Below, in pieces: positions 8,149-42,783 of a DNA stretch of 64,000 nucleotides; position 1 is the first letter of the stretch, and the number at the start of each line of letters is the position of its first letter. The notes beneath the pieces were generated by a model. It worked only from the letters and a program-made list of their open reading frames with translations, had not been told where the DNA came from and did not search any database. A program made the position numbers and the translations under genes. The stretch comes from Cyanidioschyzon merolae (Eukaryota): NCBI GenBank assembly GCA_000091205.1, contig AP006500.2, one strand, 5' to 3'.

Positions 8149-8170
8149 GTGCGTGCGTGCGTGCGTGCGC
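8149..8170. repeat. (GTGC)n microsatellite
   Basis: gtgcgtgcgtgcgtgcgtgcgc. Confidence 0.9.
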
Positions 8171-8249
8171 GGCTCTTTTGTTCTGGCATCATATTTGTGT
8201 ACATTCGTGTATGAGCGAAATGGAACGAGTCCCCGTAAATCGGGCGGAC

Positions 8250-16676: not shown

Positions 16677-19120
16677 GATTAGCGTTCTCTGGTCTCAGGT
16701 TAACATTCGGGGCGCAGGCAGACTGTCGACAATTTACAAACGCTTCGAGACACCTCACCAGCGATCGCACAGAGCTCCTCTGTGCTCGATGCGGTGGCAG
16801 GTTTGAGCGTCTCGCATGTCTAGCGCGCATGCGAAGAACTGATGGCACGTGAGCGACGGCAGCAGCAGCAGCAGCATCCCTGATGATAAATTCCGAACAA
16901 GTCCGCGCGAATATCTGCACGAGTGGCAGAGAGGCTTTTCCTAGTCCGGCGATATCCTTAGCGGCTGCGATCATACGTTTTACTCTACGAGTCCTGTCGC
17001 GGTTCCTTTTGCAAAAGTCTCGTACACTTCGAGAAGCACGAGATGCCACTGCCTCGCGTCTGTGGCAGCAAACGCTGTGCAAAACGGCCGAGCCGCATGA
17101 TATGCTGCCAACCGAATCGCTCCGAGTTGTATATTGCGAGGATACGAGATCCAATGAAGTGGCTCTCGGAGTTTCCCGAGAACGACGCCGCAGCGACCGT
17201 GGCGCTGTGCACCTTTTTCTGAGTCACTGAGAAGGAGCGTTATGGCCTGGGCCTTGCAAGAAACACTCGCCCAAGCCAGCATGCTCCGAAGCGCCTGCGA
17301 GTCTTTGCGGTACTTTGGTAGGCATTCCGATCTGCAGAGCTGATCTCACGGCTTTCTGCGACCTCGATTGAGGATACCGCTGGCGGGATGCGCCATCCGA
17401 ACGACCCTGGGCCAAAAGCGAGCGTGCAGTTTTCAGAAGAAACTTCTAGGTCTCTAGTACGAAAATCCTCCCACGGAATGGACGAGCTCTATTAAGAGAC
17501 GCTGCAGCGAGCAAGCAGCAACGCCAGTGGGAGTCGCAGTTCCTGTAGGTACGAGACATACGCCTCAACACGCTCTCGGCTTGCAAGCGAGTTCTGTAAA
17601 CGGTACAGGAATGACATTGACATGGCCTCCGCAATCTGTATTCAATCTACTGGGAAGAGGCGCTCATGCTGGATATCTTTTCGCAATATCTCGGGTATGT
17701 AGGCGAATAGCATCATCTTTGCCAGTTGCGCGATAAATAATAACGCTTGCTTATGGGGTTTATGATCAATTTGCTGGGAAGACTCGTCGATGCGTTACTC
17801 ACAAGCCGATGGACGTGCGGACAACATGTTCGAATCATCGATCGTATACCCTGCAAAAGTAATATGTACCGTCTCCCGTGCTCATGGATGTAGGAAAATT
17901 AGTTTTGATATTCCGACACCGTCGCATGAAAAGCAGAATGATCCCCAATTGCGCAGCTGCAACTTTTTGTTCGACAGAAGGTTTACCTGGACCAGCTATC
18001 CCAGAATGGAGGATGGGTACTGGAAATCTAAAATGCGTTCATCATACTGCACCCTACCTTCGAGCTCTATTACCCATGCTTCCTCTTGGATGTACTGGTC
18101 TTTTTGTACTTTCTATCGTGCATCGATTGTCTGCTGTGAGCATCCGCAATAGCACCTATGCAATTGGTACGGATGTGACACAGAGACAGAGTGGCTTTGC
18201 TATACCACTGACAGCATCAGCTCGAGGAGTGCTGCGCTCGACACGGTGTCAAAGTACATAATCATTCTGGGAGCCCGCAGGCTGCGCAGACAGACCTGCT
18301 GTCTGCGGCAGCGCGAAGCGGTATTCTGGGAGATAACTGCAACAAGGGCGACGCATAGACACATTCTACCCGCTCCGAGTGACAGAATAAACTGCGTTGC
18401 GGACGAGTTGCGCAGATCTCACTATAGTGCCCGCCACTGGGAGGAGCATGAAGCGTATGCGGGGCAGATTCGTCCCGCTCGCGGGACCTTTCGCCAAGAA
18501 GGTAAACATTTGACGATATGGAGAGCTTTCCCCTTTTAATGTTTATCGTAGAGGGGGAATGGATTTTTTATATCGTTGGTAGTTCATGGTTAGTCTCTGT
18601 TCTTTTTTCTGTATGGAGCAGTCGATACAATCACCTCTATATCTGGCAGGCACGAGACAGGATGGGCATCTCGCCGTTGAAGCGAAACGCGTTCCTGAAG
18701 AGTATCATGTTGATCTAACAAGATGTATTTGCATTGAAGACGGAGCAATCTATAGTTCAGTCTAATTATGTTCCAACTTTCAAGTGAGTACATTCAAGTG
18801 ATTCTTCGCACTATGTAACGGAGGCGTTCGAAGAGCGTCCTTTTTCAAAAAAGACACTAAAACAGGAAAGTTATGGGAAAGCGAGTCGACGAGCCCTGAG
18901 GCCCAGTGTCGCCGGCTGCCTGAAAAAACAAAAAACAGTGCCGAGTCAAGAAGAAAAGGAAAAGAAAAAGAAGCGAAATGGAGAGGCCCTACGTCGAAGG
19001 CTGCAATAAAGACGACAGTGCGACGAAATCGTAGTAAAACCCTGTCTTCGTAGACATATCAAGGGTCCGCACAAGGAAAAGTCGCAAGACGCCATCAGAA
19101 TCCATATCGCGTCTTACTCC

Positions 19121-19786
19121 ATGAGTATTATAAAGGCGCCGTTAGGACTAATGCATTTGGAGAAGGATACGTGTCGCAACGTGACGGACATCAAAACAAT
19201 TGACGTTCTGGAAGAATTTTTCAACAAGACCTTCACCCGCCACCTGATGCTTGGCACCGGGGAAACGTCGAGTGGAAATGAGCGAGCGCATGCCCTCCAC
19301 GAAAATCACGCCGAATACCGCATCAGCGGTACTCGATCCAGGGGCGACTTGTGTATTGACACCTGCGGGGCAGTCAGGTACTTCACGAACCTAAAGATCC
19401 ATTTGACCGTGAAACTCGAATGCTTCACGATACGCGTCCTGTTTGCGCTGTACTCGGGCCTCTCGCGCACAGGAATATGGGTCATTATCGATGGCATCAC
19501 GAATGATCGCCAGCACGAACAGGAGACTGAGCTCGTCGAAGAGAAGATATCACACAGGAGAACGAATGAGGCTTCTGTCATCCGTGCGGCTATGCAAGAG
19601 CATCGTGCGGACTTGGTGCTCGCGCATCCAGCAGAAAAGGTATCAGATATGAAAAAAGATGAAGAAAGATGCTGTTCCCGAGCCCTGCGCTATTTTACGC
19701 TTTTGGGCCGGGATCTGGAACGCATGGCCGAAAAGCAGCTGAGTCGCGGAAAAATGAAGATTCGGAGGAATGGAAGGCTTTCCTAA
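19121..19786 (+). CDS. Conserved ORF1 of the duplicated module (221 aa, unknown function). It could be the N-terminal WED/REC-like part of the type-1 Fanzor-like gene.
   Basis: ATG-initiated ORF that is intact in both copies (37034..37699) with ~5 aa differences. No motif recognised. It lies immediately upstream of the RuvC-bearing frames and in the same orientation. Confidence 0.4.
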   Translation: MSIIKAPLGLMHLEKDTCRNVTDIKTIDVLEEFFNKTFTRHLMLGTGETSSGNERAHALHENHAEYRISGTRSRGDLCIDTCGAVRYFTNLKIHLTVKLECFTIRVLFALYSGLSRTGIWVIIDGITNDRQHEQETELVEEKISHRRTNEASVIRAAMQEHRADLVLAHPAEKVSDMKKDEERCCSRALRYFTLLGRDLERMAEKQLSRGKMKIRRNGRLS

Positions 19787-21200
19787 TGGGTACGCGCCTC
19801 AACGTCGTTCCGATATGCAGCGCCAACTCATATTTCGTGGCAGTCTGCTCCAGCGTCCCTCATGGCATCGTGAGGGATATCTGTCCGGAGTTCGATGCAG
19901 GCAAGAAGGAGTTCATGGGCCAAAACCGGGAAACTCATTGGAAGAATATCTTCGATTTCAAACGTCTCAATACGGGCAAGAAAGGGTATTCACGGGGACC
20001 ATCGGAAGCGATGGGGCAGCCATGTGTGTACATTACCGGCGGCTGGGGGCGGATCGTCCTATCGTGCCTTCGGCTTCGCCCTCGCCGAAGCATGAAGAAA
20101 AGAAGGAGGCAGATCCTGCGACTCAGGAGGTGCAGGATAACGAGCTTGTCGCTGGCTCGGCGAAGCATGAAGAAAACAACAAGGCGGATCCTGCGACACA
20201 GGAGGTGCAGGATAACGAGCTTGTCGCTGGCTCGGCGAAGCATGAAGAAAACAACAAGGCGGATCCTGCGACACAGGAGGTGCAGGATAACGAGCTTGTC
20301 GCTGGCTCGGCGAAGCATGAAGAAAACAACAAGGCAGATCCTGCGACTCAGAAAGTGCAGGATAACGAGCTTGTCGTTGGCACCGACCCGGGGAACACAA
20401 ATATCGTTACCATCGCTGCACCCAAGCGTGCGGAAGATGGTCCTGACGTTAGCTCACGTCAGAAAGACATGCTTCTTTTAAAGTTCTAAACATAGAAATA
20501 CCATCGAGAATCGGGAATACTGAATACGAGGAAGAAAATCGAGACGTGGAATGCCGCAGTGCAAGAGCATCTGGAAGCTTTGAGCGAGCTGACGAGCCGA
20601 GGAGCGGACTTTCAGGCTTCTCGGAAATCCATGAAAGTTCGTGTTGCTCATTGGGAGGCGCTGTGGGATGAGTATCCAAAGCCCCGGTGGGCTCGTCAGC
20701 GACTGATCTTGTGCTGTGGGAAACAGGGAGCGTTCGCCAACTTTTTCAATGCGTTCGGCGCCCTCAAAGAGGACGAGAGTCAGAGGCTCGCAATAGCGTA
20801 TGGAGCAGGGCGCTGGATGACCCAAAAAGGGTGTACACAGCTCCATCGACAAGAGCGTACAAGAAGTGTGCACATCGTTTTGTCACAATACCTATCGATG
20901 AGTTCCTAACGTCCTATATGCACCATGAGCTGGGGTGCACACTTCCGAGCGTCGAGACGGAAAAGCGTCAGCGGGGCCCTGAGGATATAGCAAAGTACGG
21001 AGCGCTGACAGAGCAGCAAGTAGAAAGTAGGGCGAAAGTTCCTGGGCTACGTGCACTGGTGCGTACAACCAGTGATGGCAAGAAACGTATAGCGTTTGTC
21101 AATCGTGACTCGAACGCCGCTATCAATACCAGGAGATGTACGGTGATGGAGACGAGACCCCCGGAGTTGATACGATCCAACTTTACGCGGCAGCCTCTCA
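19770..21200 (+). pseudogene. Type-1 TnpB/Fanzor-like RNA-guided-nuclease-family gene (OrfB_IS605 / OMEGA superfamily). It is frame-disrupted and probably a pseudogene.
   Basis: RuvC-I-like NELVVGTDPGNTNIVTIA at 20367-20414 (compare the TnpB GIDLG..n.ATLS motif). The frame then breaks (stop at 20489). Further downstream are ...AIAYGAGRW / VYTAPSTRAYKKCAHRF....MHHELGC (a YTSQ.C..C-like zinc-finger region, 20830-20950) and RuvC-III NRDSNAAIN at 21101-21127 (compare dRDvNAAiNI). These motifs lie in at least three frames. Confidence 0.55.
20082..20381 (+). repeat. 75-bp in-frame tandem repeat, 4 units, encoding AKHEENNKADPATQEVQDNELVAGS
   Basis: Units start at 20082, 20157, 20232 and 20307. The last unit runs into the RuvC-I motif, so the repeat duplicates the approach to GTDPG. 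Copy B (37995..38219) has only 3 units. Confidence 0.9.
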
Positions 21201-21364
21201 AGGTGAACTTACCCAGGGACAAGTTGGAACCAGTAGTAGGTGGCCGGTCCAAAAAGACCGGGAGGCGTCTGCACGTCAGCGTACCGACATCCACACTATC
21301 GGCGTCGTGTATATGCGTCGGTATACCTGTTTGGTCTGTGGTAGCTGAGAAGCATGGCCCGTGG

Positions 21365-21964
21365 ATGCCTTTTTCGAGTCGTTTCTTTCGGCAGCTGGTT
21401 CGCGGTGTCAGCTATGTGCCGGTCGTGTACGTTGTCCACGATCTTGTCGGTACGATTGTTCCCGTGAGGGGTGCGTCTATGCAACCAACCCTGAACCCAG
21501 GTGCGGCTGCAGGGGAGCTACCTCCCGGACAAGTTAGCGGCAGTCAGGATGTCGTGTTGGTTAGCCGGCTTCTCCGCGCTGTTTGGAACGTAAGGCGTGG
21601 GGATATCGTCGTTTTGCGGTCTCCCGACGCGGGACCGCAGAAGCGACTCGTGAAAAGGGTGGCCGCTCTAGAGGGGGATCGCGTTTACAACCACCGCACT
21701 GGGAAGTTTGTGGAGGTTCCACCTGGCCACTGCTGGCTCGTAGGTGACAACCGTACGGTGTCCCGTGACTCGGCTAGCCACTACGGGCCGGTTCCGCTGG
21801 GACTCCTCGAAGGACGCGCAGTGGCGGTTATCTGGCCACCACGTCGCTGGCAGGTGCTCGCGACGTCACCAAGCACAGGTTTGTGGCTCGACACTCGGAA
21901 CAGCGAGGGAGACCAACTGCCAGCCAAGAAGCAAGTGCTGGCCAAGTCGGCAACTACGAAGTGA
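21365..21964 (+). CDS. IMP1: Mitochondrial inner membrane protease subunit, an IMP1/IMP2-type S26 signal peptidase
   Basis: ATG at 21365. Motifs: VRGASMQPTL (GxSMxPTL nucleophile Ser), RGDIVVLRSP, KRVAALEGD, GHCWLVGDNRTVSRDSASHYGPVPLGL (GDN...S.DSR.YG box D/E). The protein is about 199 aa. Confidence 0.8.
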   Translation: MPFSSRFFRQLVRGVSYVPVVYVVHDLVGTIVPVRGASMQPTLNPGAAAGELPPGQVSGSQDVVLVSRLLRAVWNVRRGDIVVLRSPDAGPQKRLVKRVAALEGDRVYNHRTGKFVEVPPGHCWLVGDNRTVSRDSASHYGPVPLGLLEGRAVAVIWPPRRWQVLATSPSTGLWLDTRNSEGDQLPAKKQVLAKSATTK

Positions 21965-22199
21965 ATGGCTGTACGTCCGGATGGTGAGCAGAGAACGGCG
22001 CTATGGAGCAGCACCCATTTCAGAATACCATACAACGGATCCGCTCAGCGAACTCGGGCGTAGACGCTCAAGTCTGGACCGCTTCGCATTGTCATCTACA
22101 AGAGGTTTTGTGGGCGTTTTCTTCGAGTACGTCCTTTTCCTCGCTCTTGTCTCCGGTATTGTATACGTCGAACGATGCATGTTGTCTTGTTGGGTTGCC

Positions 22200-23813
22200 A
22201 GTAACCGAGGCATGTCGACGGCAGCGGTAGAGTCGCGGTATCGCCTCTTCGGGCAGTTGTGGACGCGTTTCATGCCCAGGCAAAAGTTGCCATCGATGGG
22301 TCCTCTGTATGTGTATGCAACGTCGGTGCTGCGTTTGCAGCGGTGACAAACTTGGGTGTGTTCCGGCGTTCCCATGCGTCCCCAACGTACGTTCTCCCTC
22401 TCGGAAGGGCGCTTTGTGGTACCTGTACGCCAGCTCCATCACCCACCATATGGTATCGACGGGTGCAGAGGGCTTGCCCCGAGATCGTCCTCCGTTTCGG
22501 CGCCTGGTGCCGTAAACTGCGATGACGGGCTCGTTCTGGTCGATCGCCTCGGCGAGCACCAGACGCGCTGCAAACACAAGTGCAAACGCCTCCTCTCGAT
22601 GACTCAACATGCGCTGGCTTGCGCGCTCTTCGCTCCCTGAGTACGCTTTTGGCGAAACATGGCGATGATCGTGACGAGCATCGCGTTGCCGTACCTACTC
22701 GTGGGCATTGTGTGTCCACGTGCTTCACTTGTGTGCGAGCGTGCAGTCACGGCTTCTGGGACTCGCTGCTGCTTCCGTCGCTTGCTTGCTGGACGGACGT
22801 TTTTCGCGTTCATTATCTTCCGCTGATACGAAGAGTACAGGCGCGCTGGCAGAATGCACGGCTGCTGGTCCAAGTCAAGTATGCGGGCACAAAACCCGAG
22901 CAGCCATAGCTTCGCCTGTTGCCACCAGGGGTATTGGGTCTCTGTTTGGGTAAAAGAGGAGCGCAGGTGCAGGGGTCCGCACTGCATGCTCCAGGCTGGT
23001 GCAGAGTGCATTGGAGAGCATCCTCGCGAGGCGATGCATTTGTACGGGTCGTTGCTCGTCTGCGTAGTAGCTCGTCTGTGCTGTATAGGTCGTTGCTTGT
23101 CTGCGTAGTAGCTCGTCTGGGCTGTACGGGTCGTTGCTTGTCTGCGTAGTTGCTCGTCTGGGCTGCACGGGTCGTTGCTCGTCTGCGTAGTAGCTCGTCT
23201 GGGCTGTACGGGTCGTTGCTGGTCTGCGCAGTAGCTCGTCTGGGCTGTACGGGTCGTTGCTGGTCTGCGCAGTAGCTCGTCTGGGCTGTATAGGTCATTG
23301 CTCCTCTTCGTAGTAGCTCGTCTGGGCTGTACGGGTCGTTGCTCGTCTGCATAGTAGCTCGTCTGGGCAGGGGTGCTTTTCAGCTCTGACGGTGTCATGA
23401 ATCGTATGGGAGGTTCGCTGTTGTCCTTGTTGATAATGGCGATATTGGCCGATACGCTTACGCAGTCGGTCTCGACGAAAGACGCAACCTCTCCTGGTCG
23501 TATTGCGAAGCTGGTATTCCCGCAGTTTTTCCTTCCCGCTTGCATCTATTGCTTGCGAGGCATGGTGTCGCCACTGCCGAGCGGTGTTTCCTCGATGACC
23601 GTGAAGAAAAGCGGATTCGACTTGAGCACCGAATCGATTATTTGACGTGACAAATCCAGTCGACTTTCGGAACGGGCCTGCGAACAAGGCATCAAGGGGT
23701 GACGTCGAGGCTGTCTGCTCGTCAACCCAACAGAGCGCATTGCTGCGTCCACGAGTTGCCCTGAATCGGAAAGATCGAAAACTTGAAGCATGTGAGATTC
23801 GGGTATGCCACAC
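22200..23813 (-). pseudogene. Type-2 TnpB/Fanzor-like gene relic, convergent with the type-1 gene. It carries frameshifts and a 41-bp repeat insertion.
   Basis: Minus-strand frames give RuvC-I-like ARILDLDQQP (~22875), RuvC-II-like LVLAEAIDQNEPVIAVYG (~22553), zinc finger TPEHTQVCHRC...FCLGMKRVHNC (22348-22260) and RuvC-III-like YRDSTAAVDM (22237-22211). These lie in three different frames. The tail is clearly homologous to copy X (29850-30083): TCRHCEW...FRLCMKRVDNRCKWLIRDFNAAAEVV. Confidence 0.45.
23035..23375. repeat. 41-bp tandem repeat (~8 units) inside the type-2 relic
   Basis: Unit gggtcgttgctcgtctgcgtagtagctcgtctgggctgtac. A 41-bp period is not a multiple of 3, so the minus-strand ORF shows a 41-aa periodicity (QRPVQPRRATTQTSNDPYSPDELLRRRATTRAAQTSNYADK). 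Copy B has fewer units (about 40860-41100). Confidence 0.85.
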
Positions 23814-25213
23814 ATAAGGAGAGAAGAAGCGAAGCAGCTTGCAAATATGAGTTGGATATCGATTTCTGTTTTTTTACGGACCCGTGTTCGGGGGTATCGC
23901 GAATCATTCTGACTCCGATGAAGGAACGCATTCCAGCGGTAAATCGTTCAAGGTAACGCTCCGAAAACACGACCAAGAATCCTAAAACTACGCGTGAACC
24001 CGTATGCCCATAGTGCTGCACTTGGAATCTTGATGCCGCAGATCCAGAGAAAAACGTTTGGATGTATCGCAAGCTAGGAAGAGCGCAAGCAGCTCAAAAC
24101 TCCATGATAACGTAATACGGTTCTAGAGACCTGCTCTGGGGCCGCGCTCCCATCCGCAGAGGCAGCGCACGAAAGCAACAGCACTAGCCAAAAAAATGAG
24201 CTCGAACGGGTTCACATATCGGCATACATTGCATTACCGATTTCGCATGGCGTGGAACTGGGGAGAGAGCATCCCAATATGGAAACGTACTCAGCCGGGC
24301 ACGCGTCTGCATCCGCAGCATATGCGCAGGTCCCGTGAAAGGACCACCTGCGGCGCCGTGCGGCCCGCGCTGCACCAGGCCAGCTTCTCTGACAGCCTAA
24401 ACAGCGCCAATGCTCCCGTGACCTGGACTACGCTCAAGGTCTAGCTCCGCAGCAAACGACGTACCTGCTGTCGCTCGCCGCCCTGAACTAAACGCACGCA
24501 CGCGTACGCGTCCTCGAGTTGGGCGCTTCACGAAAGCGACCCGAGCAGCCGCAGGCTGCAAAACGTGCTCCCTTGTTGCCTAGCGCTTTCTCACGAGAAT
24601 AACCTCGAACCGGTACGCCTTCGAAGCAAAGAAAAGCGCCTGCGAGCTCGACCTCGTATGCAGCCTATAAACGAGGCTCCTGGGGTGCTCGTTATCGAGC
24701 TTCAGTGCACGCATCGATACAGCCCCCGCCACGTTTCCCACCGAACAAAGCACCGTGATCTCTGTTGCATCGTCATGCACCAGTCACGTATCAACCTCTG
24801 CGAAAAGCAAGCTCGATGCATACAACCAACAACAACCGTACGCATCAGCAAGCAAGCATCGAAGCAGATGGCAACAAACAGTGCCCTTGGCGCGTGCTGC
24901 TGCCTCCTTCGGGAGATTGTTTTCGGACAACGCAGCAGCGATCGCGCGCGCGCGCCTCGAAGGCCATCAGCTGCAATTCGACGCTGCCTCGAAAGTGTGC
25001 GTTCGATCCGCACTACGGCGGCGCGAGCTGTCACGACTCCGGTGACCCCCAGCGAACAGTTCGCATCGAGATAGAAGTCGAAGTTTGCAACGTGGCAGTG
25101 CCAGCTTGCGCTATAGCATGGCCCCGGAGGAGGCGCCAGTCCAATGCTTCCAAAGCAATTTGTGTTTGGACTTGTTCTAGCTCGAACAACATCTGTAATC
25201 CGATTGTATCTCA

Positions 25214-27091
25214 TTGAAAGCCATGAACATGAGGCTGCTCTATCTGGCCGCTATTGTAGTGGTCCTGGCGGCGACGCTGCTGCAAAGTGCGGCCGCCATG
25301 GACTACTATCAGAAGGATATGAAACAGAAGAAGCAGTGCTACACAGTCGAGAAGTGTGTGAAGCAGGAGCGCAAATGTATCCAATATGAGAAGGTTTGCA
25401 CGCAGCCGCAGAAGAAGTGCATCCAGCACGAACTTATCTGTGTGCAGCAAGAGAACCAGTGCAAGCAGTACGAGCCCGAATACCAGAATGTTAAAGTCTG
25501 TGTTGCGTACGAGAAAGAATGCGTGCAATGGAACTATAAGGATGAGTGCCAGCAGGAGTACGTCCAACAGAACAATTACTTCTGGGGCATGAGATGGTCC
25601 AATGAGAAGAAGAAGGAGCCTGTCAAGAAACAGTGCAAGAAAGTTCAGAACGGCTGCGCACAGTGGCAGGAGAACAAGAACAAGTGCGCACAGTATGGCG
25701 AACAACAACAGAAGATCGGACAAAAGTGCTCCGACTATGTCCAGGTGTGCACGAAGACGAAACCCGGGAAATGCATCCAGTATCAGGAGACCTGCAACAA
25801 CTATCAGCAGCAGTGTGCACAATGGGCTAACGTGTGCCAGCAGTACAAGAAGGAGATCGTCTGTCCTGAACCCAAGAAGGAGCCGCAGAAGAAAGTTAAG
25901 CAAGAGCAGTACGTGAAGAAGGACAACTACGTGTGGCGAATGTACGATCAAAAGAAAAAGTATGATCAGAAAAACGTAGAGCAGCAACAGAAGAATGAAT
26001 GGTTCCAGCAGCAGAATGAGAAGAAGCAGTACTATTGGCAGCCACAGAAGACCCAGTACTACAAGAAGAATGATTACAAGAAGAATGTTTACAACGACCA
26101 GAAACAGTACTACTGGGAGCCACAGAAGACCCAGTACTACAAGAAGAATGATTACAAGAAGAATGTTTACAACGACCAGAAACAGTACTACTGGGAGCCG
26201 CAGAAGACCCAGTACTACAAGAAGAATGACTACAAGAAGAATGTTTACAACGATCAGAAGCAGTACTACTGGGAGCCGCAGAAGACCCAGTACTACAAGA
26301 AGAATGACTACTACCAAAAGAAGGACAACTACGTGTGGCGAATGTACGATCAAAAGAAAAAGTATGATCAGAAAAACGTAGAGCAGCAACAGAAGAATGA
26401 ATGGTTCCAGCAGCAGAATGAGAAGAAGCAGTACTATTGGCAGCCACAGAAGACCCAGTACTACAAGAAGAATGATTACAAGCAGAATGTTTACAACGAC
26501 CAGAAACAGTACTACTGGGAGCCGCAGAAGACCCAGTACTACAAGAAGAATGACTACAAGAAGAATGTTTACAACGACCAGAAACAGTACTACTGGGAGC
26601 CGCAGAAGACCCAGTACTACAAGAAGAATGACTACAAGAAGAATGTTTACAACGATCAGAAGCAGTACTACTGGGAGCCGCAGAAGACCCAGTACTACAA
26701 GAAGAATGACTACTACCAAAAGAAGGACAACTACGTGTGGCGAATGTACGATCAAAAGAAAAAGTATGATCAGAAAAACGTAGAGCAGCAACAGAAGAAT
26801 GAATGGTTCCAGCAGCAGAATGAGAAGAAGCAGTACTATTGGCAGCCACAGAAGACCCAGTACTACAAGAAGAATGACTACAAGAAGAACGTTTACAACG
26901 ACCAGAAACAGTACTACTGGGAGCCGCAGAAGACCCAGTACTACAAGAAAAATGACTACAAGAAGAATGTTTACAACGACCAGAAACAGTACTACTGGGA
27001 GCCGCAGAAGACCCAGTACTACAAGAAGAATTACAATCTATACGGAAAGAAAGAAAATCCATACGTTCCGCAGTATTACTACTGGGAGTGA
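25214..27091 (+). CDS. Secreted cysteine-module Gln/Lys/Tyr-rich repeat protein, paralog C (625 aa)
   Basis: ATG at 25214 with signal peptide MKAMNMRLLYLAAIVVVLAATLLQSAAA. An N-terminal Cys module is followed by WNYKDECQQ, MRW and CKKVQNGCAQWQENKNKC...GKCIQYQETCNNYQQQCAQWANVCQQYKKEIVC. After that come 2.9 copies of a 134-aa repeat rich in K/Q/Y/N/W. Confidence 0.75.
   Translation: MKAMNMRLLYLAAIVVVLAATLLQSAAAMDYYQKDMKQKKQCYTVEKCVKQERKCIQYEKVCTQPQKKCIQHELICVQQENQCKQYEPEYQNVKVCVAYEKECVQWNYKDECQQEYVQQNNYFWGMRWSNEKKKEPVKKQCKKVQNGCAQWQENKNKCAQYGEQQQKIGQKCSDYVQVCTKTKPGKCIQYQETCNNYQQQCAQWANVCQQYKKEIVCPEPKKEPQKKVKQEQYVKKDNYVWRMYDQKKKYDQKNVEQQQKNEWFQQQNEKKQYYWQPQKTQYYKKNDYKKNVYNDQKQYYWEPQKTQYYKKNDYKKNVYNDQKQYYWEPQKTQYYKKNDYKKNVYNDQKQYYWEPQKTQYYKKNDYYQKKDNYVWRMYDQKKKYDQKNVEQQQKNEWFQQQNEKKQYYWQPQKTQYYKKNDYKQNVYNDQKQYYWEPQKTQYYKKNDYKKNVYNDQKQYYWEPQKTQYYKKNDYKKNVYNDQKQYYWEPQKTQYYKKNDYYQKKDNYVWRMYDQKKKYDQKNVEQQQKNEWFQQQNEKKQYYWQPQKTQYYKKNDYKKNVYNDQKQYYWEPQKTQYYKKNDYKKNVYNDQKQYYWEPQKTQYYKKNYNLYGKKENPYVPQYYYWE
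25916..27088 (+). repeat. 402-bp coding tandem repeat (2.9 copies), each unit containing four 78-bp subrepeats
   Basis: Units start at 25916, 26318 and 26720. The subrepeat encodes KQYYWEPQKTQYYKKNDYKKNVYNDQ (26 aa). Confidence 0.9.
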
Positions 27092-27479
27092 AAATCAGCA
27101 GGGAGCCACCGAACATCTGGGAGCGTCTGAAACGGTGGGGGCACGGGAAAGTTTACGGATTGGCGATTGCGCCGCTACGTACAGGTTAGACTCTTGCCAG
27201 TAAACCGATAGAGTACACCAGAATGCAGTTTGCGCTTATGGCGGGTACCTCGATCGTGTCAGGTGAGTTGCAAGGCATAGGCGCCGTGGTCTATATCGAC
27301 ACAGCATGCATGCTGTGTCTCTGCGAAGATCACCGGATCCGGCGGACGTTGCGGGCACCATAACTTAAACCACGACGGCAACATGTTACCGATATGAACT
27401 GTCATCGGTGCCAGCCCGTGACCCCCCAATAGCAGCCGCATTCAAAACAGTTCCTCATTGCAGCGACCGTGCCGCACGC

Positions 27480-28010
27480 ATTACAAGCACCGTCAGTGAT
27501 CGTATATGCCTGCTCACGAACCCGTCGATGACTAGATTTTTTTCTACTTTCCATATACCTAACGAAACTCCTGCTCACTAGTGTGAGGCATACCTCATCG
27601 GCCCACGCGTGCGACGCCGCGAACGCTCCCCGTGTGCTACAAACATCGCGGGGTTTTGCGCCTGCCCTGTACACACGCCGGGTACGGTCGGAATGGTGCA
27701 CAGCAGAGGGCAGCAGCGTCGCGGCCAGCGCCGGCGCGTAACGCGGGAGATCATTCGACGTGAGCTCCGCAACCCCCCGATACCTGATCCCCTGCCGCAC
27801 GCTGCAATGCACATCGGCTCGTCAGCGCGCGGCAGGGCACGCTTGCGTCAACGCGGCGTCGGACACGTGTCCTTCATCGATCGGCGGCGGTCTGCGACGT
27901 GTACGCACCGCGGTCGATACGCGCGCAAACAGATTTTGCAGGCATGGGACACGACGCCGACGCCGTCGTCGAAGGGAAACGCGTTCCTGACCATTCGTCG
28001 ACTTTGCCGG
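27480..28010. repeat. Dispersed ~500-bp element (family 3) immediately upstream of paralog D
   Basis: Shares cctaacgaaactcct..., cggcgtcggacacgtgtcc... and gcaggcatgggacacgacgcc...gaagggaaacgcgttcctga with 36165..36640. A ~70-bp fragment of the same element lies at 18640..18710, just left of module copy A. Confidence 0.5.
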
Positions 28011-28203
28011 GAAACATGCGATGCCGCATTCGGAGCATGCACTGCTGCCGGTGACGTGTCCCATGCACGCCGACGGCATGGCACGGCGACATCAAGGATG
28101 CAGCCTCTCCGAGCGTGCGACATTGGTGTTGAAGGCGTAGCATTCGAGTAGCGAGCGGTATTCATTCACGCGTAGAGCAATACAACTGCAACCTTAGGAA
28201 AAA

Positions 28204-29849: not shown

Positions 29850-30420
29850 TCAAAACGCCTGTCTCCGCTGTCCATCTAGAATCGTTGTCAGCAGCCGAAC
29901 GACTTCTGCGGCAGCGTTAAAGTCCCGAATCAGCCACTTGCAGCGATTGTCAACACGTTTCATGCAGAGGCGGAAGTTGCGGTATACGCTTCGCTTGTAA
30001 TTGTCGCCGTATTTGAGCGCAGCCTCGGTGCGCCATTCGCAGTGGCGACAGGTGATTGTGGTCAAATGTTGTCGCATGTACACGAAATCTACTCGTCACT
30101 CGAGCGCCGCCCAGTGACGCGTGAGCGCTTGCGTCACCGCTTGGTGCATGAACTTGATGGGCACAAAAGGATGCATTCGATGCCGGCCTCGGTTTCCGCG
30201 CCCGGGAGCGTACCCTAGGACGACGGGCCTGTTCTAGGTGATCCCCCGACGAGAGCTCTGTGCGCTGCATGCGTCCATGCGAGATGTCTCGTTCGATCAC
30301 GGATTTGTGGAGCGCGATGTTGTCCATGACGAAACAAGTACCCGAGGAAATATCTCCGCATGAGAACGAGTCGAGAACTTTCGATTGGATCACGCTCGTG
30401 TCATGCGAAGAACACCGCAT
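29850..30420 (-). pseudogene. Type-2 TnpB/Fanzor-like relic (copy X), carrying RuvC-II-like, zinc-finger and RuvC-III tail segments
   Basis: Minus frames give CFVMDNIALHKSVIERD, which is homologous to LVLAEAIDQNEPVI of module copy A with the catalytic Glu replaced, followed by TCRHCEW...FRLCMKRVDNRCKWLIRDFNAAAEVVRLL (CxxC...C......C zinc finger plus RDxNAA). 30860..30960 matches the right-terminal region of the module (23900..24020): cacgacc.ag.atcctaaaactacgc. Confidence 0.45.
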
Positions 30421-31608
30421 GCTTCACTGGAAATGATTTCTATGATGATGCAAGCCTGAGTTAAAGGCGCTTTTTGCATGCAAACAAAAGGGACGCGAGC
30501 CTCCGGGTGCTGATCACGTGACAGGTATCGTGTTGTTGTCGAATGCCCTTTCGTCAATGACCGCACATATCGGACGATTCCTCTTTCGAACGAAATCCTT
30601 TATTTTACAGGACACCTGCATTGATATATCGGCATGGGGTTGTGCACAGGTCGTCAAGCAACGACATCGAGCTTTATTTACTCGCCAATCCGGTGGCACG
30701 AATCGCATCGCCTGCGAGTCGTCATGAAAAAATCCGAATATTTCAAGAAAGCGTGATTTGGGCATGCTCCACGAAAAGAACGGACACCAATCGAGTCCTA
30801 TACCTATGAACTGGATAAAGTAATCGGCGATTTTACGAGCGCTTGTTCGAAGGCTTCGCTAATCATCCTCAGTCCAGTCACGTAAAGTACGCCAGCGGCA
30901 AAGCGTCCAAGCAGCCTATCCAAATCCACGACCGAGCATCCTAAAACTACGCCCTGTTCCATAAACCTCGATTGCTGCTCTCTGAATATCGAGCATATCC
31001 AGCTACACCAAGTCTGAAACAAAATATAAAAGCAGGTATCATGCAAGCAGTCCGGGGTTCCATTTTCATTTGACGCGCGCGTCACGCCTCTGCCCACGTC
31101 CGATACTGCCATTTCGGACACGCTGACCCGCACCCGCCGCTAGTCCGTCGACATGAACCACGATCCTCTACATCTCGCGTACGGTATCCTGCTTGGTGAC
31201 GCTCGACAGACCCATACCCCAATGTCTGTTTCTCCGACGCGGATAGCTCTTTGCGATCACGCGTGCGCGCGCTCTGCCTTCGAAATGCCGCTCGCGCTGG
31301 ACAGCACGGCACCTGCCAGCACGTACGCCAGACGCATGTGTATGCGTGCCGCCACAAGATCGCCAGCACGCAAACGCAGCAGTGACACGCATCGACACGA
31401 GATCGGCATCCGAGCTGCGGATCCGTGCGCAACACGTGTCCGCGCGAATGTCGCCAGCGCCTGGATGCAACGATCGCCGCAATGCGCCGCTCGACACGGA
31501 AGCACGCCCCAGCGCTTCTTTACCGAAGAGCGAAGCCTTGTTCGATGTCCGTGGCGTCAAACAGGTGCGGAGGACAGCAGCGATGTGCACGCAACGCCGT
31601 GCTCTTGT

Positions 31609-35833: not shown

Positions 35834-36164
35834 TTTTTCGACGTCTCAGACAGGCGAACGACGGCGCGTAGCTCCAGGCGTTGCCCGGGAACCTTTACGG
35901 ACGAGGTCGTTTACGACGCTCAAAAGGTCCAAAGATCACAATCCGAAAAAAACATCGGAACTTGGTCTGAAAGAAATCTGAATAGAGCGCTGACGCTCTA
36001 TCCGACTTTTGATTAACAATAGCAACAACAACCGACCTCACGACATTGTCAAAGTCGAAACTGTCGAGCAACGGAACGCACGAAAACCGCACAACTCATC
36101 ACAGTACCTCATTCCGGCGTCTGTGCAGCATTCATAACAAGCATAGGGGATCAACGTATATTCG

Positions 36165-36640
36165 TACTCGATACACTACTATGCCTAGTTTGTTTACCAT
36201 CAGTAAACCTAACGAAACTCCTACTGAGTAGAGAGATGCATACCTCACCCGCACAAGCGTAACACCCTACGATGGCTACGCTTTCGACAGAAGCATCGCG
36301 AGGTATCTTGCCAGGCCCCAACATCCCCATGTATGTCAGGGCGGTACTGCGATAGGCTGTAGTCTCGGCACCAGGGAAATATCCTATCGCAGGGGATTAT
36401 TCCGTGTGAGTTTCCGATTTACGATACCTGATTTCCGCTGCAGAGCGATGCGTGCTGGTGAGAACACGCATGCGCCAATGCGGCATCGGACACGTGTCTC
36501 CTTTATGGATCGGTGTGAGCACTGCGGTCGGGCAGCGCTTCACGGGACCTGGCAGGCATGAGATACGACGCGCATGCCGCCGCCGTTGAAGAGAAACTTG
36601 ATCTTGATTTCCAGCGTATAGCCGAAATGTAAGAGTTGTA
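36165..36640. repeat. Family-3 dispersed element, second full copy, immediately left of module copy B
   Basis: See 27480..28010. Same orientation. Confidence 0.5.
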
Positions 36641-37033
36641 TTTTCGTTAACTTCATAGCCAAGCACAGTTTTTCAGTTCATTTGTGTTTCACACCTCAAC
36701 TAAAAAATTCGATTGATATTTCGCAGTATATAACGGAGGCTTTCGAATAGCGTGCTTTTTCGAAAAAGACGCTAAAAAAGGAAAGTTATGGGAAAGCGAG
36801 TCGACGAGCCTTGAGGCCCAGTGTCGCCGGCTGCCTGAAAAACAAAAAACAGTGCCGAGTCAAGAAGAAAAGAAAAGAAAAAGAAGCAAAAGGGAGAGGC
36901 CCTACGTCGAAGGCTGCAATAAAGACGACAGTGCGACGAAATCGTAGTAAAACCCTGTCTTCGTAGACATATCAAGGGTCCGCACAAGGAAAAGTCGCAA
37001 GACGCCATCAGAATCCATATCGCGTCTTACTCC

Positions 37034-37699
37034 ATGAGTATTATAAAGGCGTCGTTAGGACTAATGCATTTGGAGAAGGATACGTGTCGCAACGTGACGG
37101 ACATCAAAACAATTGACGTTCTGGAAGAATTTTTCAACAAGACCTTCACCCGCCACCTGATGCTTGGCACCGGGGAAACGTCGAGTGGAAGTGAGCGAGC
37201 GCATGCCCTCCACGAAAATCACGCCGAATACCGCTTCAGCGGTACTCGATACAGGGGCGACTTGTGTATTGACACCTGCGGGGCGGTCAGGTACTTCACG
37301 AACCTGAAGATCCATTTGACCGTGAAACTCGAATGCTTCACGATACGCGTCCTGTTTGCGCTGTACTCGGGCCTCTCGCGCACAGGAATATGGGTCATTA
37401 TCGATGGCATCACGAATGATCGCCAGCACGAACAGGAGACTGAGCTCGTCGAAGAGAAGATATCACACAGGAGAACGAATGAGGCTTCTGTCATCCGTGC
37501 GGCTATGCAAGAGCATCGTGCGGACTTGGTGCTCGCGCATCCAGCAGAAAAGGTATCAGATATGAAAAAAGATGAAGAAAGATGCTGTTCCCGAGCCCTG
37601 CGCTATTTTATGTTTTTGGGCCGGGATCTGGAACGCATGGCCGAAAAGCAGCTGAGTCGCGGAAAAATGAAGATTCGGAGAAATGGAAGGCTTTCCTAA
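37034..37699 (+). CDS. ORF1 copy B (221 aa, unknown function)
   Basis: Intact paralog of 19121..19786. Confidence 0.4.
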   Translation: MSIIKASLGLMHLEKDTCRNVTDIKTIDVLEEFFNKTFTRHLMLGTGETSSGSERAHALHENHAEYRFSGTRYRGDLCIDTCGAVRYFTNLKIHLTVKLECFTIRVLFALYSGLSRTGIWVIIDGITNDRQHEQETELVEEKISHRRTNEASVIRAAMQEHRADLVLAHPAEKVSDMKKDEERCCSRALRYFMFLGRDLERMAEKQLSRGKMKIRRNGRLS

Positions 37700-39038
37700 T
37701 GGGTACGCGCTTCAACGTCGTTCCGATATGCAGCATCAACTCACATTTCGTGGCAGTCTGCTCCAGCGTCCCTCATGGCATCATGAGGGATATCTGTCAG
37801 GAGTTCGATGCAGGCAAGAAGGAGTTCATGGGCCAAAACCGGGAAACTCATTGGAAGAATATCTTCGATTTCAAACGTCTCAATACGGGCAAGAAAGGGT
37901 ATTCACGGGGACCATCGGAAGCGATGGGGCAGCCATGTGTGTCCACTACCGGCGGCTGAGGGCGGATCGACCTATCGTGCCTTCGGCTTCGCCCTCGCCG
38001 AAGCATGAAGAAAAGAAGGAGGCAGATCCTGCGACACAGGAGGTGCAGGATAACGAGCTTGTCGTTGGCTCGGCGAAGCATGAAGAAAACAACAAGGTAG
38101 ATCCTGCGACTCAGAAAGTGCAGGATAACGAGCTTGTCGTTGGCTCGGCGAAGCATGAAGAAAACAACAAGGCAGATCCTGCGACACAGGAGGTGCAGGA
38201 TAACGAGCTTGTCGTTGGCACCGACCCGGGGAACACAAATATCGTTACCATCGCTGTACCCAAGCGTGCGGAAGATGGTCCTGACGTTAGCTCACGTCAG
38301 AAAGACATGCTTCTTTTAAAGTTCTAAACATAGAAATACCATCGAGAATCGGGAATACTGAATACGAGGAAGAAAATCGAGACGTGGAATGCCGGAGTGC
38401 AAGAGCATCTGGAAGCTTTGAGCGAGCTGACGAGCCGAGGAGCGGACTTTCAGGCTTTTCGGAAATCCATGAAAGTTCGTGTTGCTCATTGGGAGGCGCT
38501 GTGGGAGGAGTATCCAAAGCCCCGGTGGGCTCGTCAGCGACTGATCTTGTGTTGTGGGAAATAGGGAGCGTTCGCCAACTTTTTCAATGCGTTCGGCGCC
38601 CTCAAAGAGGACGAGAGTCAGAGGCTCGCAATAGCGTATGGAGCAGGGCGCTGGATGACCCAAAAAGGGTGTACACAGCTCCATCGACAAGAGCGTACAA
38701 GAAGTGTGCACATCGTTTTGTCACAATACCTATAGATGAGTTCCTAACGTCCTATATGCACCATGAGCTGGGGTGCACACTTCCGAGCGTCGAGACGGAA
38801 AAGCGTCAGCGGGGCCCTGAGGATATAGCAAAGTACGGAGCGCTGACAGAGCAGCAAGTAGAAAGTAGGGCGAAAGTTCCTGGGCTACGTGCACTGGTGC
38901 GTACAACCAGTGATGGCAAGAAACGTATAGCGTTTGTCAATCGTGACTCGAACGCCGCTATCAATACCAGGAGATGTACGGTGATGGAGACGAGACCCCC
39001 GGAGTTGATACGATCCAACTTTACGGGGCAGCCTCTCA
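37683..39038 (+). pseudogene. Type-1 TnpB/Fanzor-like pseudogene, copy B
   Basis: RuvC-I-like LVVGTDPGNTNIVTIA at 38205-38252. The zinc finger and NRDSNAAIN (38939-38965) are in the frame of ORF 38384..39802. The same frame disruptions as copy A are present, plus one extra stop. Confidence 0.55.
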
Positions 39039-39202
39039 AGGTGGACTTACCCAGGGACAAGTTGGAACCAGTAGTAGGTGGCCGGTCCAAAAAGACCGGG
39101 AGGCGTCTGCACGTCAGCGTACCGACATCCACACTATCGGCGTCGTGTATATGCGTCGGTATACCTGTTTTGTCTGTGGTAGCTGAGAAGCATGGCCCGT
39201 GG

Positions 39203-39802
39203 ATGACTTTTTCGAGTCGTTTCTTTCGGCAGCTGATTCGCGGTGTCAGCTATGTGCCGGTCGTGTACGTTGTCCACGATCTTGTCGGTACGATTGTTCC
39301 CGTGAGGGGTGCGTCTATGCAACCAACCCTGAACCCAGGTGCGGCTGCAGGGGAGCTACCTCCCGGACAAGTTAGCGGCAGTCAGGATGTCGTGTTGGTT
39401 AGCCGGCTTCTCCGCGCTGTTTGGAACGTAAGGCGTGGGGATATCGTCGTTTTGCGGTCTCCCGACGCGGGACCGCAGAAGCGACTCGTGAAAAGGGTGG
39501 CCGCTCTAGAGGGGGATCGCGTTTACAACCACCGCACTGGGAAGTTTGTGGAGGTTCCACCTGGCCACTGCTGGCTCGTAGGTGACAACCGTACGGTGTC
39601 CCGTGACTCGGCTAGCCACTACGGGCCGGTTCCGCTGGGACTCCTCGAAGGACGCGCAGTGGCGGTTATCTGGCCACCACGTCGCTGGCAGGTGCTCGCG
39701 ACGTCACCAAGCACAGGTTTGTGGCTCGACACTCGGAACAGCGAGGGAGACCAACTGCCAGCCAAGAAGCAAGTGCTGGCCAAGTCGGCAACTACGAAGT
39801 GA
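39203..39802 (+). CDS. IMP1: IMP1/IMP2-type S26 mitochondrial inner membrane peptidase, paralog B
   Basis: ATG at 39203. All catalytic boxes match copy A. There are 2 aa differences (P/T, V/I) in the N-terminal segment. Confidence 0.8.
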   Translation: MTFSSRFFRQLIRGVSYVPVVYVVHDLVGTIVPVRGASMQPTLNPGAAAGELPPGQVSGSQDVVLVSRLLRAVWNVRRGDIVVLRSPDAGPQKRLVKRVAALEGDRVYNHRTGKFVEVPPGHCWLVGDNRTVSRDSASHYGPVPLGLLEGRAVAVIWPPRRWQVLATSPSTGLWLDTRNSEGDQLPAKKQVLAKSATTK

Positions 39803-40037
39803 ATGGCTGAACGTCCGGATGGTGAGCAGAGAACGGCGCTATGGAGCAGCACCCATTTCAGAATACCATACAACGGATCCGCTCAGCGAACTCGGGCGTA
39901 GACGCTCAAGTCTGGACCGCTTCGCATTGTCATCTACAAGAGGTTTTGTGGGCGTTTTCTTCGAGTACGTCCTTTTCCTCGCTCTTGTCTCCGGTATTGT
40001 ATACGTCGAACGATGCATGTTTTCTTGTTGGGTTGCC

Positions 40038-41546
40038 AGTAACCGAGGCATGTCGACGGCAGCGGTAGAGTCGCGGTATCGCCTCTTCGGGCAGTTGTGG
40101 ACGCATTTCATGCCCAGGCAAAAGTTGCCATCGATGGGTCCTCTGTATTTGTATGCAACGTCGGTGCTCCGTTTGCAGCGGTGACAAACTTGGGCGTGTT
40201 CTGGCGTTCCCATGCGTCCCCAACGTACGTTCTCCCTCTCGGAAGGGCGCTTTGTGGTACCTGTACGCCAGCTCCATCACCCACCATATGGTATCGACGG
40301 GTGCAGAGGGCTTGCCCCGAGATCGTCCTCCGTTTCGGCGCCTGGTGCCGTAAACTGCGATGACGGGCTCGTTCTGGTCGATCGCCTCGGCGAGCACCAG
40401 ACGCGCTGCAAACACAAGTGCAAACGCCTCCTCTCGATGACTCAACATGCGCTGGCTTGCGCGCTCTTCGCTCCCTGAGTACGCTTTTGGCGAAACATGG
40501 CGATGATCGTGACGCGCATCGCGTTGCCGTACCTACTCGTGGGCATTGTGTGTCCACGTGCTTCACTTGTATGCGAGCGTGCAGTCACGGCTTCTGGGAC
40601 TCGCTGCTGCTTCCGTCGCTTGCTCGCTGGACGGACGTTTTTCGCGTTCATTATCTTCCGCTGATACGAAGAGTACAGGCGCGCTAGCAGAATGCACGGC
40701 TGCTGGTCCAAGTCAAGTATGCGGGCACAAAACCCGAGCAGCCATAGCTTCGCCTGTTGCCACCAGGGGTATTGGGTCTCTGTTTGGGTAAAAGAGGAGC
40801 GCAGGTGCAGGGGTCCGCACTGCATGCTCCAGGCTGGTGCAGAGTGCATTGGAGAGCATCCTCGCGAGGCGATGCATTTGTACGGGTCGTTGCTCGTCTG
40901 CGTAGTAGCTCGTCTGCATAGTAGCTCGTCTGGGCTGTACGGGTCGTTGCTGGTCTGCGCAGTAGCTCGTCTGGGCTGTATAGGTCATTGCTCCTCTTCG
41001 TAGTAGCTCGTCTGGGCTGTACGGGTCGTTGCTCGTCTGCATAGTAGCTCGTCTGGGCTGTTCGGGTCGTTGCTGGTCTGCGCAGTAGCTCGTCTGGGCA
41101 GGGGTGCGTTTCAGCTCTGACGGTGTCATGAATCGTATGGGAGGTTCGCTGTTGTCCTTGTTGATAATGGCGATATTGGCCGATACGCTTACGCAGTCGG
41201 TCTCGACGAAAGACGCAACCTCTCCTGGTCGTATTGCGAAGCTGGTATTCCCGCAGTTTTTCCTTCCCGCTTGCATCTATTGCTTGCGAGGCATGGTGTT
41301 GCCACTGCCGAGCGGTGTTTCCTCGATGACCGTGAAGAAAAGCGGATTCGACTTGAGCACCGAATCGATTATTTGACGTGACAAATCCAGTCGACTTTCG
41401 GAACGGGCCTGCGAACAAGGCATCAAGGGGTGACGTCGAGGCTGTCTGCTCGTCAACCCAACAGAGCGCATTGCTGCGTCCACGAGTTGCCCTGAATCGG
41501 AAAGATCGAAAACTTGAAGCATGTGAGATTCGGGTATGCCACACAT
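40038..41546 (-). pseudogene. Type-2 TnpB/Fanzor-like relic, copy B
   Basis: ORF 39839..40213(-) carries the CHRC...FCLGMKCVHNC...YRDSTAAVDM tail. RuvC-II-like LVLAEAIDQN is in ORF 39930..40448(-). Confidence 0.45.
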
Positions 41547-42783
41547 AAGGAGAGAAGAAGCGAAGCAGCTTGCAAATATGAGTTGGATATCGATTTCTGT
41601 TTTTTTACGGACCCGTGTTCGGGGGTATCGCGAATCATTCTGACTCCGATGAAAGAACGCATTCCAGCGGTAAATCGTTCAAGGTAACGCTCCGAAAACA
41701 CGACCAAGAATCCTAAAACTACGCGTGAACCCGTATGCCCATAGTGCTGCACTTGGAATCTTGATGCCGCAGATCCAGAGAAAAACGTTTGGATGTATCG
41801 CAAGCTAGGAAGAGCGCAAGCAGCTCAAAACTCCATGATAACGTAATACGGTTCTAGAGACCTGCTCTGGGGCCGCGCTCCCATCCGCAGAGGCAGCGCA
41901 CGAAAGCAAAAGCACAGGACGACTGCACCAGACACCAGCGAGACCGCGGCTCACGACCCGCTCGACAGACACCTGCGTTTGCTCCTTCATCGCACCGCTG
42001 CTTGCACTGCCTCAGACTCGTTCATAACCCAGCATACAAAAGCGTAGAGCGAGATTGTATCCCCCTTCACCGGCTGATCTGACAGGTGTCTTGCGCTGTT
42101 GCTGCTGTTGCTGCTGTTGCCGGTTCTGCAGGCCTCAACTCAAGCGCTCTGAAGTGCAGCAAGCGCATCGCCGGTTCCCCAGCACGTCTGCATGCGCTTT
42201 ACAGGCAACGGAAAGCCAGCGCGTGCGAGAGACGCTCGTATCCCGCCAACGCACTTGCCACGACTTTAACTCGACCAGGAGGCACAAACCTTCCTGCCCA
42301 GCCGAACCGAAGGTTGAACACGCTCTCGTAGCAGCGACGAATAACCGTCTGCGACAATCTTCAGGGACAAGAGGTCAGTCTCATACGAGTGCCTGACCAG
42401 AAAACCGTTATTCCCAGGTACCTAAACCCGAGCGTCTATCCCAGGTCACTAGAGCTGCACCTAGCGCCAGCACAGTGCACTCGGAGACGCAGCACTTACT
42501 CCAAAGTCGTAGCTTTCTCAAGTCGATATCGAACAGTGCTGGAACCGGTTCCCGGCATACTTGCGTCCATTCACGCTAGACTCTATGTGCAGTTCGAACA
42601 AGTGCCTACAAAACCTTGTGCAGTTTCCCGCATCCAGGATGCATATCGCACGCGCTGGTGACTGCTGAACCGCATCATCGACCGATCCACCAGGTGTTGT
42701 ACTGCTTCTTTCACTATCGATCCACCTGGCGCGTTCGCGTTGGTTCAGGATATGCACAGGCTGCCCGACGACAACCAGGACTC

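Follow-up and report, generated by a model that had tools for sequence, protein, structure and literature searches.

Repeat-mediated segmental duplications are known from the genomes of yeast, Drosophila, and human, where break-induced replication (BIR) or synthesis-dependent strand annealing (SDSA) is primed in dispersed transposons. For Cyanidioschyzon merolae a Fanzor1 transposon family, CMe-1A, has been described which comprises about 150 copies, is about 3 kb long and has its 5' 635 bp in common with the 635-bp element TE-N2_CMe (Bao and Jurka 2013; PMC3627910). Here we describe a locus on chromosome 18 of C. merolae 10D at which a segment of about 5.3 kb, carrying the gene for a predicted mitochondrial inner-membrane peptidase (IMP), is present twice. 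The analysed stretch of DNA, called the window in the following, has a length of 64,000 nt. As in the known cases of repeat-seeded ectopic repair, one junction falls in a repeat shared by both loci while the second is nonhomologous; the copies are direct, lie on one chromosome and include a whole gene together with its flanks. Unlike in yeast, Drosophila, and human, the seeding repeat would be a Fanzor1 (TnpB-like) family, and the repair pathway is deduced from the end product. The host differs as well: C. merolae, a model organism for its extremely compact genome nearly without redundant genes, has one of the most compact and least redundant genomes of free-living eukaryotes. We consider it rather likely that the duplication arose by transposon-seeded, homology-primed ectopic copying from the upstream locus (A) into an element at the downstream locus (B), with a nonhomologous join at the right end.

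The two copies were delimited with a repeat scan, self-BLAST (E = 0 for the match between them), and a global MAFFT alignment:

18792-24184, forward strand: copy A (5,393 nt), the ancestral copy at the donor locus, supported by self-BLAST, MAFFT, outgroup gene order, and junction contigs
36707-41915, forward strand: copy B (5,209 nt), the derived copy at the recipient locus between PSMD9 and a gene for a 2,195-aa protein

Both copies are direct and collinear. Their starts are 17,915 nt apart and the gap between them measures 12,522 nt. Over about 5,209 aligned positions 88 substitutions were counted (98.3% identity) as well as four indels, namely two single nucleotides, a whole tandem unit of 75 nt, and 107 nt within a 41-nt array. 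Excluding both tandem arrays and the leftmost 72 nt, 47 of 4,399 positions differ (1.07%; 98.9% identity). The original prediction, made from the sequence alone, of two direct copies spaced by 17.9 kb and about 98-99% identical is confirmed by these values; its coordinates were off by 16-19 nt at the left ends and exact at the right ends. It was also correct in that the copies diverge by point substitution and repeat slippage, since the copy numbers of the two tandem arrays differ (Tandem Repeats Finder, TRF):

20081-20381, forward strand: in-frame 75-nt (25-aa) tandem repeat in the Fanzor1 gene of copy A, 4.0 units
37994-38219: its counterpart in copy B, 3.0 units
23041-23368: 41-nt tandem array inside the second relic of copy A, 8.0 units
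40908-41099: its counterpart in copy B, 4.7 units

With near-identical repeats there is a general risk that a single locus has been represented twice in the assembly. Nothing beyond this general risk speaks for such an artefact here, and its probability is negligible. The copies differ by the substitutions and indels given above, the genome of C. merolae 10D has been finished telomere to telomere, to 100% (PMC1955436), and all four junctions are spanned by independent metagenome contigs that are about 99% identical to the window: the left junction of copy A by L013, its right junction by L009, the left junction of copy B by L011, L003, L005, and L008, and its right junction by L011. The junction-spanning contigs together with the finished genome exclude the assembly error against which the original prediction had proposed read-depth and long-read validation. 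The duplication is real, intrachromosomal, direct, segmental, and fairly young. It had been called recent, which holds in a relative sense only: several environmental populations, about 1% different from strain 10D, have both copies at these loci, and the duplication is older than the split of these populations. Both peptidase genes were already annotated, and in our literature searches no paper describing this duplication was found. We also considered a mutation bias resembling repeat-induced point mutation. In the raw counts G>A and C>T changes from A to B were overrepresented, which was no longer so after polarising with the metagenome copies, and the idea was dropped.

To polarise the duplication we compared the gene order with related species, as had been proposed. 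In Cyanidiococcus yangmingshanensis (L033) and in the assembly GCA_041825655 (L034-L036) the gene order corresponds to positions 7052-35833 of the window: orf7052, orf10162, orf15600, IMP, orf25214, CMR328C, RFT1, VOC, and PSMD9. For each outgroup a single IMP gene is recorded, situated at the position of copy A, and around it neither outgroup shows CMe-1-type coding homology or insertions of 2 kb. Consequently, copy A is ancestral and copy B is derived. The interval between the copies contains CMR328C (BAM82536), RFT1 (BAM82537), a VOC/glyoxalase gene, and PSMD9/Nas2 (BAM82539), the last three in agreement with the prediction.

The duplicated genes are as follows:

21365-21964, forward strand: IMP-A, S26 mitochondrial inner-membrane peptidase (Imp2-like), BAM82534.1; Pfam PF10502, exact GenBank protein match
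39203-39802, forward strand: IMP-B, paralogue of IMP-A, BAM82540.1; Pfam PF10502, exact GenBank protein match

As predicted, each copy holds an intact S26 peptidase gene. Both open reading frames (ORFs) match the Pfam family Peptidase_S26 (PF10502) with E = 1.7e-18 (67.6 bits) for IMP-A and E = 2.9e-18 (66.8 bits) for IMP-B, the curated cut-off being 22.9. GenBank annotates BAM82534 and BAM82540 as "similar to inner mitochondrial membrane peptidase Imp2p". The GxSMxPT motif with the catalytic Ser and the KRV motif with the Lys are general features of LepB and Imp; the corresponding motifs GASMQPT and LVKRVAALEGD (KRV) are identical between IMP-A and IMP-B. The best distant matches are IMMP2L proteins (41-46% identity), and from annotation and this homology both proteins are predicted mitochondrial inner-membrane peptidases. 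With the classical pair Imp1/Imp2 (S26A; yeast, and human IMMP1L/IMMP2L) they share the S26 fold family and the Ser/Lys catalytic motifs, and they resemble its Imp2/IMMP2L member, where their best matches lie. Unlike the classical pair, which is ancient and divergent, IMP-A and IMP-B are 99% identical and represent a young lineage-specific Imp2-like duplicate.

A count of synonymous and nonsynonymous differences, likewise proposed earlier, gave 2 differences in 600 nt, at 21368/39206 and 21398/39236, both leading to amino-acid changes (P2T and V12I). Elsewhere in the copies 45 of 3,805 positions differ (1.2%; one-sided Fisher p = 0.036). Across eight sequences 5 of 600 IMP positions segregate versus 87 of 3,805 elsewhere (p = 0.0095). 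The flanks copied along with IMP-B measure about 2.5 kb on the upstream and 2.2 kb on the downstream side. A retrocopy was rejected, as these flanks were kept and no poly(A) is present at 41915/41916.

Upstream of the IMP gene each locus contains a transposon relic:

18618-21277, forward strand: putative CMe-1A-family Fanzor1 pseudogene of locus A with 3 frameshifts and 2 in-frame stops, spanning "ORF1" (19121-19786)
36549-39115, forward strand: putative CMe-1A-family Fanzor1 pseudogene of locus B, a hybrid, with an extra TAG at 38562-38564

The element at locus A is 76% identical at the DNA level to an element in L007 (5676-8343) with an intact 752-aa ORF; the homology to this element stops at 21277, 88 nt ahead of the IMP start codon. 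In a tblastn search the intact 752-aa homologue P0048 aligned unbroken over 18974-21184. This alignment includes "ORF1", which had been predicted as a gene of its own and in fact makes up the N-terminal third of the Fanzor1 relic. Positions 25-765 of a hidden Markov model (HMM) of the family are matched in order, across frames. All 3 frameshifts and 2 in-frame stops are common to A and B, hence the first nuclease gene was already disabled before it was copied; for this relic the prediction of a nuclease dead before the duplication holds. The extra in-frame TAG of copy B, also noted in the prediction, goes back to a C>T change at 20724/38562.

The reconstructed pseudo-protein of the first relic found 47 metagenomic homologues with E down to 6e-222. 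The motifs GTDPG, IDEF..TS (IDEFLTS), and NRDSNAAIN, providing D, E, and RD, are visible; the zinc finger is degenerate, in P0048 as well. The match to the Pfam TNB domain is weak (E = 0.23), Pfam scans of both relics returned no family at E <= 0.1 or 10, and a PDB search with the CMe-1 profile returned nothing relevant. An AlphaFold2 model of P0048, calculated from a 20-sequence alignment, had a mean pLDDT (predicted local distance difference test score) of 32, too low for a fold comparison.

From these features we infer that the relic belongs to the Fanzor1 family CMe-1A, because species, size, copy features, and the lack of terminal repeats fit the published description (PMC3627910); placement in CMe-1A and not in a sister subfamily is presumed from this description. 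The elements come from the same species as CMe-1A and measure 2.66 kb here versus about 3 kb for the consensus, and neither the published nor the present elements have terminal inverted repeats or target-site duplications (TSDs). The copies studied here are 57-76% identical to each other, in line with the published value of about 80% to the CMe-1A consensus (PMC3627910). As in CMe-1A, D...E...RD nuclease motifs are present in the coding region, some homologues being intact (P0048, 752 aa); unlike these, the elements at our two loci are pseudogenes. The 25-aa tandem repeats also occur in P0048, so that in-frame repeats are a feature of the family. In L007 an apparently intact 752-aa Fanzor1 gene (6001-8259) contains four in-frame 25-aa repeats ahead of the first RuvC motif, yet its canonical C4 zinc finger is degenerate.

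The IMP frame is open upstream of the ATG for 231 codons in copy A and 304 codons in copy B, back into the C-terminus of the dead Fanzor1 gene. Mechanical ORF calling therefore yields "fusion" ORFs of 425 and 472 aa at 20672-21964 and 38291-39802, and the metagenome annotation of the Joint Genome Institute contains many 433-aa proteins (P0035 and others) named "inner membrane protease subunit 2". The IMP proteins of the outgroups comprise 198-199 aa, and for this reason the long calls are most likely a gene-calling artefact, in which the ORF reads through from the dead transposon gene.

Downstream of IMP lies a second relic, of which diverged collinear copies exist:

22000-24130, reverse strand: second decayed relic, probably TnpB/Fanzor-like and of another family, convergent with IMP; counterpart in copy B at about 39840-41860
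8240-9540: diverged collinear copy of the same family
29680-30995: diverged collinear copy of the same family, situated within the interval between A and B
L007 12533-13755: diverged collinear copy of the same family

In the second relic the C-terminal signature EHTQVCHRC...C..MKRVHNC...RDSTAAVDM (TxxCxxC...C..C...RD..AA) is visible, and the best-kept motif of the family, CxxC...C..C...RDFNAA, is found in the fragment 29850-30083 on the reverse strand. The family homology fades at about 24110-24135. Three family members matched PF07282 (Cas12f1-like_TNB) below threshold with E = 0.002-0.02. In an hhalign comparison of the family with the CMe-1 profile only a 16-column RD-NAAINI motif was aligned, with a probability of 41%. 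An exhaustive HMMER search of a library of 1.8 billion proteins with the 77-aa fragment 29850-30083 returned short ORF fragments only, a search with the concatenated pseudo-protein found no homologues, probably being swamped by repeat-rich candidates, and a PDB search with the family profile gave nothing relevant. Two Fanzor-like relics per copy had been predicted. Two relics are indeed present, the second one belonging to another decayed family whose motif and sub-threshold Pfam matches suggest that it is probably TnpB/Fanzor-like. We also asked whether the two relics could be inverted copies of a single family. As the CMe-1-family HMM did not match the second relic and there is no inverted DNA repeat, this was rejected.

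The boundaries of the copied tract were then aligned, on the left side together with L007:

18618-18791, forward strand: old 5' terminus of the element at locus A, not part of the copied tract (three-way alignment); counterpart at locus B 36549-36706
18792-18863, forward strand: mosaic junction zone of 72 nt, A and B 83% identical; counterpart at locus B 36707-36778
24184-24185 (locus B: 41915/41916): right junction, with an abrupt drop of identity

On the left side L007 aligns from 18618 at locus A and from 36549 at locus B, that is about 170 nt before the high-identity tract begins. Within this zone of about 170 nt A and B are 57% identical to each other, versus 68% between A and L007 and 67% between B and L007. 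A and B thus resemble each other no more than they resemble an unrelated member of the family, and left of the boundary the alignment identifies them as two independently inserted elements. The flanks had been described as sharp and unrelated on both sides; this applies to the right flank, whereas on the left CMe-1A homology continues for about 170 nt. In the adjoining mosaic zone A and B differ at 12 positions. At every one of them L011, from the B locus, has the B state. L013, from the A locus, shows the A state at 8 positions and N or a third state at 4, but the B state at none. Elsewhere such a paralog-specific pattern occurs at only 8 sites in 4,393 nt. Since the B state is kept in L011 and never found in L013, the differences in the junction zone are old. 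From about 18864 the identity between A and B is 97-99% and the copied tract proper begins; at 18864-18940 A is 88% identical to L007, which marks the best-conserved block of the family. The left boundary lies 174-246 nt inside the CMe-1A element. With family homology on the left at both loci, the start of the copied tract falls within two CMe-1A elements that had inserted independently and were already present, and the pseudogene at locus B is a hybrid of its own old 5' end and sequence copied from A.

The right junction lacks older homology, poly(A), and a TSD. The boundary is located about 50-75 nt past the detectable end of the second relic. No direct repeat that could represent a TSD was found at the flanks of either copy.

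These boundaries bear on the possibility that a composite or read-through element consisting of CMe-1A, IMP, and the second relic moved replicatively as a unit. Two transposon relics with outward-facing outer ends enclose the unit, its right boundary is close to the end of the second relic, and bacterial-style composite transposons and read-through gene captures likewise hold a host gene between transposon-derived segments. Unlike in such systems, however, the boundaries are not element termini: the left one is internal to CMe-1A, each locus keeping its own diverged 5' terminus, and the right one overshoots the family homology. Moreover, there is no TSD, the first flanking nuclease gene was dead before the copying, searches for the second family yielded no intact copy, and only two copies of the unit are seen in the window. 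Replicative transposition of a composite is therefore very improbable. Of the two mechanisms named in the original prediction, ectopic recombination fits the data and composite-element transposition does not, as the left boundary lies inside CMe-1A and no TSD is present.

The copying that we regard as rather likely may have proceeded as follows. The ancestral Imp2-like gene, present once, would have become flanked in the C. merolae lineage by two transposon insertions, the CMe-1A Fanzor1 element ending 88 nt 5' of the IMP start codon and the second, convergent TnpB/Fanzor-like element just 3' of IMP, and both elements would have decayed. A separate CMe-1A-family element in the same orientation would have been present 17.9 kb downstream, past PSMD9. 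A break or a stalled fork in the 5' part of this downstream element could then have been repaired with the upstream element as template. Strand invasion would have taken place in the best-conserved 5' block of the family, at about 18864-18960, and synthesis would have extended over about 5.3 kb, across the remaining part of the dead Fanzor1 gene, IMP, and the second relic to a point about 50-75 nt beyond, where the copied end would have been joined to locus B without homology. Such a process would resemble BIR, SDSA, or template switching. The outcome would be a second complete IMP gene, followed by about 1% drift and repeat slippage with the IMP coding sequence remaining nearly identical. The course of the repair and the earlier state of locus B are what we infer; the junctions themselves are read directly from the alignments.

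Several points weigh against this course of events. First, no remainder of the recipient element was found right of 41915. If the copying took place as proposed, the recipient was a short 5' fragment, comparable to the 635-bp TE-N2_CMe (PMC3627910), or its remainder was deleted. Second, unequal crossing-over followed by a deletion gives the same end product as repair copying. In this alternative the two CMe-1A elements, being direct repeats, would have undergone nonallelic homologous recombination to give a tandem duplication of 17.9 kb, containing the element, IMP, the second relic, and the whole interval, and a deletion would have removed the second interval copy and the distal element to leave 5.3 kb. 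It predicts the same hybrid element at B and the same nonhomologous right junction, and it accounts for the missing remainder right of 41915 without an extra assumption. On the other hand it requires two rearrangements where one is enough, and no second copy of the interval was traced in 10D or in contig L011, which spans the right junction of B. We regard this two-step course as unlikely, though it deserves consideration.

Third, the site patterns in a comparison of four taxa are star-like, with 8 sites of the orthology type, 11 of the concerted type, and 4 discordant ones, and later gene conversion between A and B is possible. Metagenome contigs may also be chimeric across a repeat of 99% identity, and L013 carries 23 ambiguous bases; with a star-like and partly mosaic pattern gene conversion and chimeric assembly are not separable. 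Carried further, these observations lead to the alternative that B is an older duplicate whose interior has been held at about 99% identity by continuing conversion with A, the edges being the limits of conversion. The concerted-type sites are as common as the orthology-type sites, a weak indication for this alternative, and the A-B divergence in 10D (1.07%) is not above the A-A and B-B divergence between lineages (0.7-1.3%). The identities in the left zone (57% between A and B versus 67-68% to the unrelated member), however, fit independent insertions and not an old duplicate; the outgroups have a single IMP gene on record, and chimeric contigs could alone give rise to concerted and discordant sites. 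An old duplicate homogenised by conversion is improbable.

Fourth, the sequence of the outgroup loci stops about 0.4-0.6 kb after PSMD9, so that for the outgroups the lack of a second copy rests on a protein search and on exact-sequence look-ups. Finally, the lower divergence of IMP would fit purifying selection or constraint on both copies. This is a modest signal and weak evidence, and all five IMP coding variants are nonsynonymous and lie within the N-terminal 59 residues. Weighing these points, we still favour homology-primed copying from A into the element at B.

Repeat-seeded segmental duplication is an ordinary type of event, found here in a published and annotated genome, and neither a new mechanism nor a new class of elements is involved. 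The modest interest of the locus lies in its nonredundant host genome, in the Fanzor family as seeding repeat, and in the fact that junction and polarity can be read directly. As a young, polarised duplication of a gene from an essential pathway it would provide a clean natural case of Fanzor-type elements seeding a duplication. For practical work, knockouts and expression studies of the Imp2-like peptidase must reckon with two near-identical genes with identical flanks, and 433-aa "inner membrane protease" entries in metagenomes are most likely read-through ORFs from a dead transposon gene. A far-reaching extension, which we put forward as a long shot, is that Fanzor1 elements serve as portable homology driving gene duplication in a genome that is minimal in other respects: an active RNA-guided sister Fanzor1 would have made the break, homing-type repair would have dragged IMP along, and the pair would be the first step of a new split of the Imp1/Imp2 kind.

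Further features were observed in the window. Between orf15600 and the CMe-1A element of locus A about 1.9 kb of extra intergenic DNA is present (16677-18617); this may be another insertion, because the whole spacer between orf15600 and IMP measures only about 0.9 kb in Cyanidiococcus. Additional short CMe-1-type Fanzor1 relics were picked up with homologous proteins and the family HMM:

11501-11848, reverse strand: short CMe-1-type Fanzor1 relic
57598-57981, reverse strand: short CMe-1-type Fanzor1 relic
5693-5782, forward strand: short CMe-1-type Fanzor1 relic
62744-62872, reverse strand: short CMe-1-type Fanzor1 relic

A dispersed repeat at 5606-5894 and 62861-63424 (77% identical within the window) is 87% identical to L007 4401-4960, which is situated about 700 nt upstream of the intact Fanzor1 element. 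A short dispersed repeat of about 71% identity occurs at 27447-27610 and 36101-36260, one copy lying directly left of the recipient element at locus B.

Four paralogous cysteine-rich genes, in the same order in Cyanidiococcus, are located at 7052-7891 and 10162-11073 on the reverse strand and at 25214-27091 and 28204-29133 on the forward strand. Their products contain 3-7% Cys, hydrophobic signal-like N-termini, and CxQ-type modules. The gene at 25214-27091 codes for 625 aa versus 375 aa in the outgroup. It contains a nested coding tandem repeat (25898-27034) of 78-nt units within 402-nt units, up to 99% identical, which probably accounts for the expansion, and metagenome contigs break at this repeat. 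A further tandem repeat, with three 147-nt copies of 88-99% identity, is found at 54147-54587.

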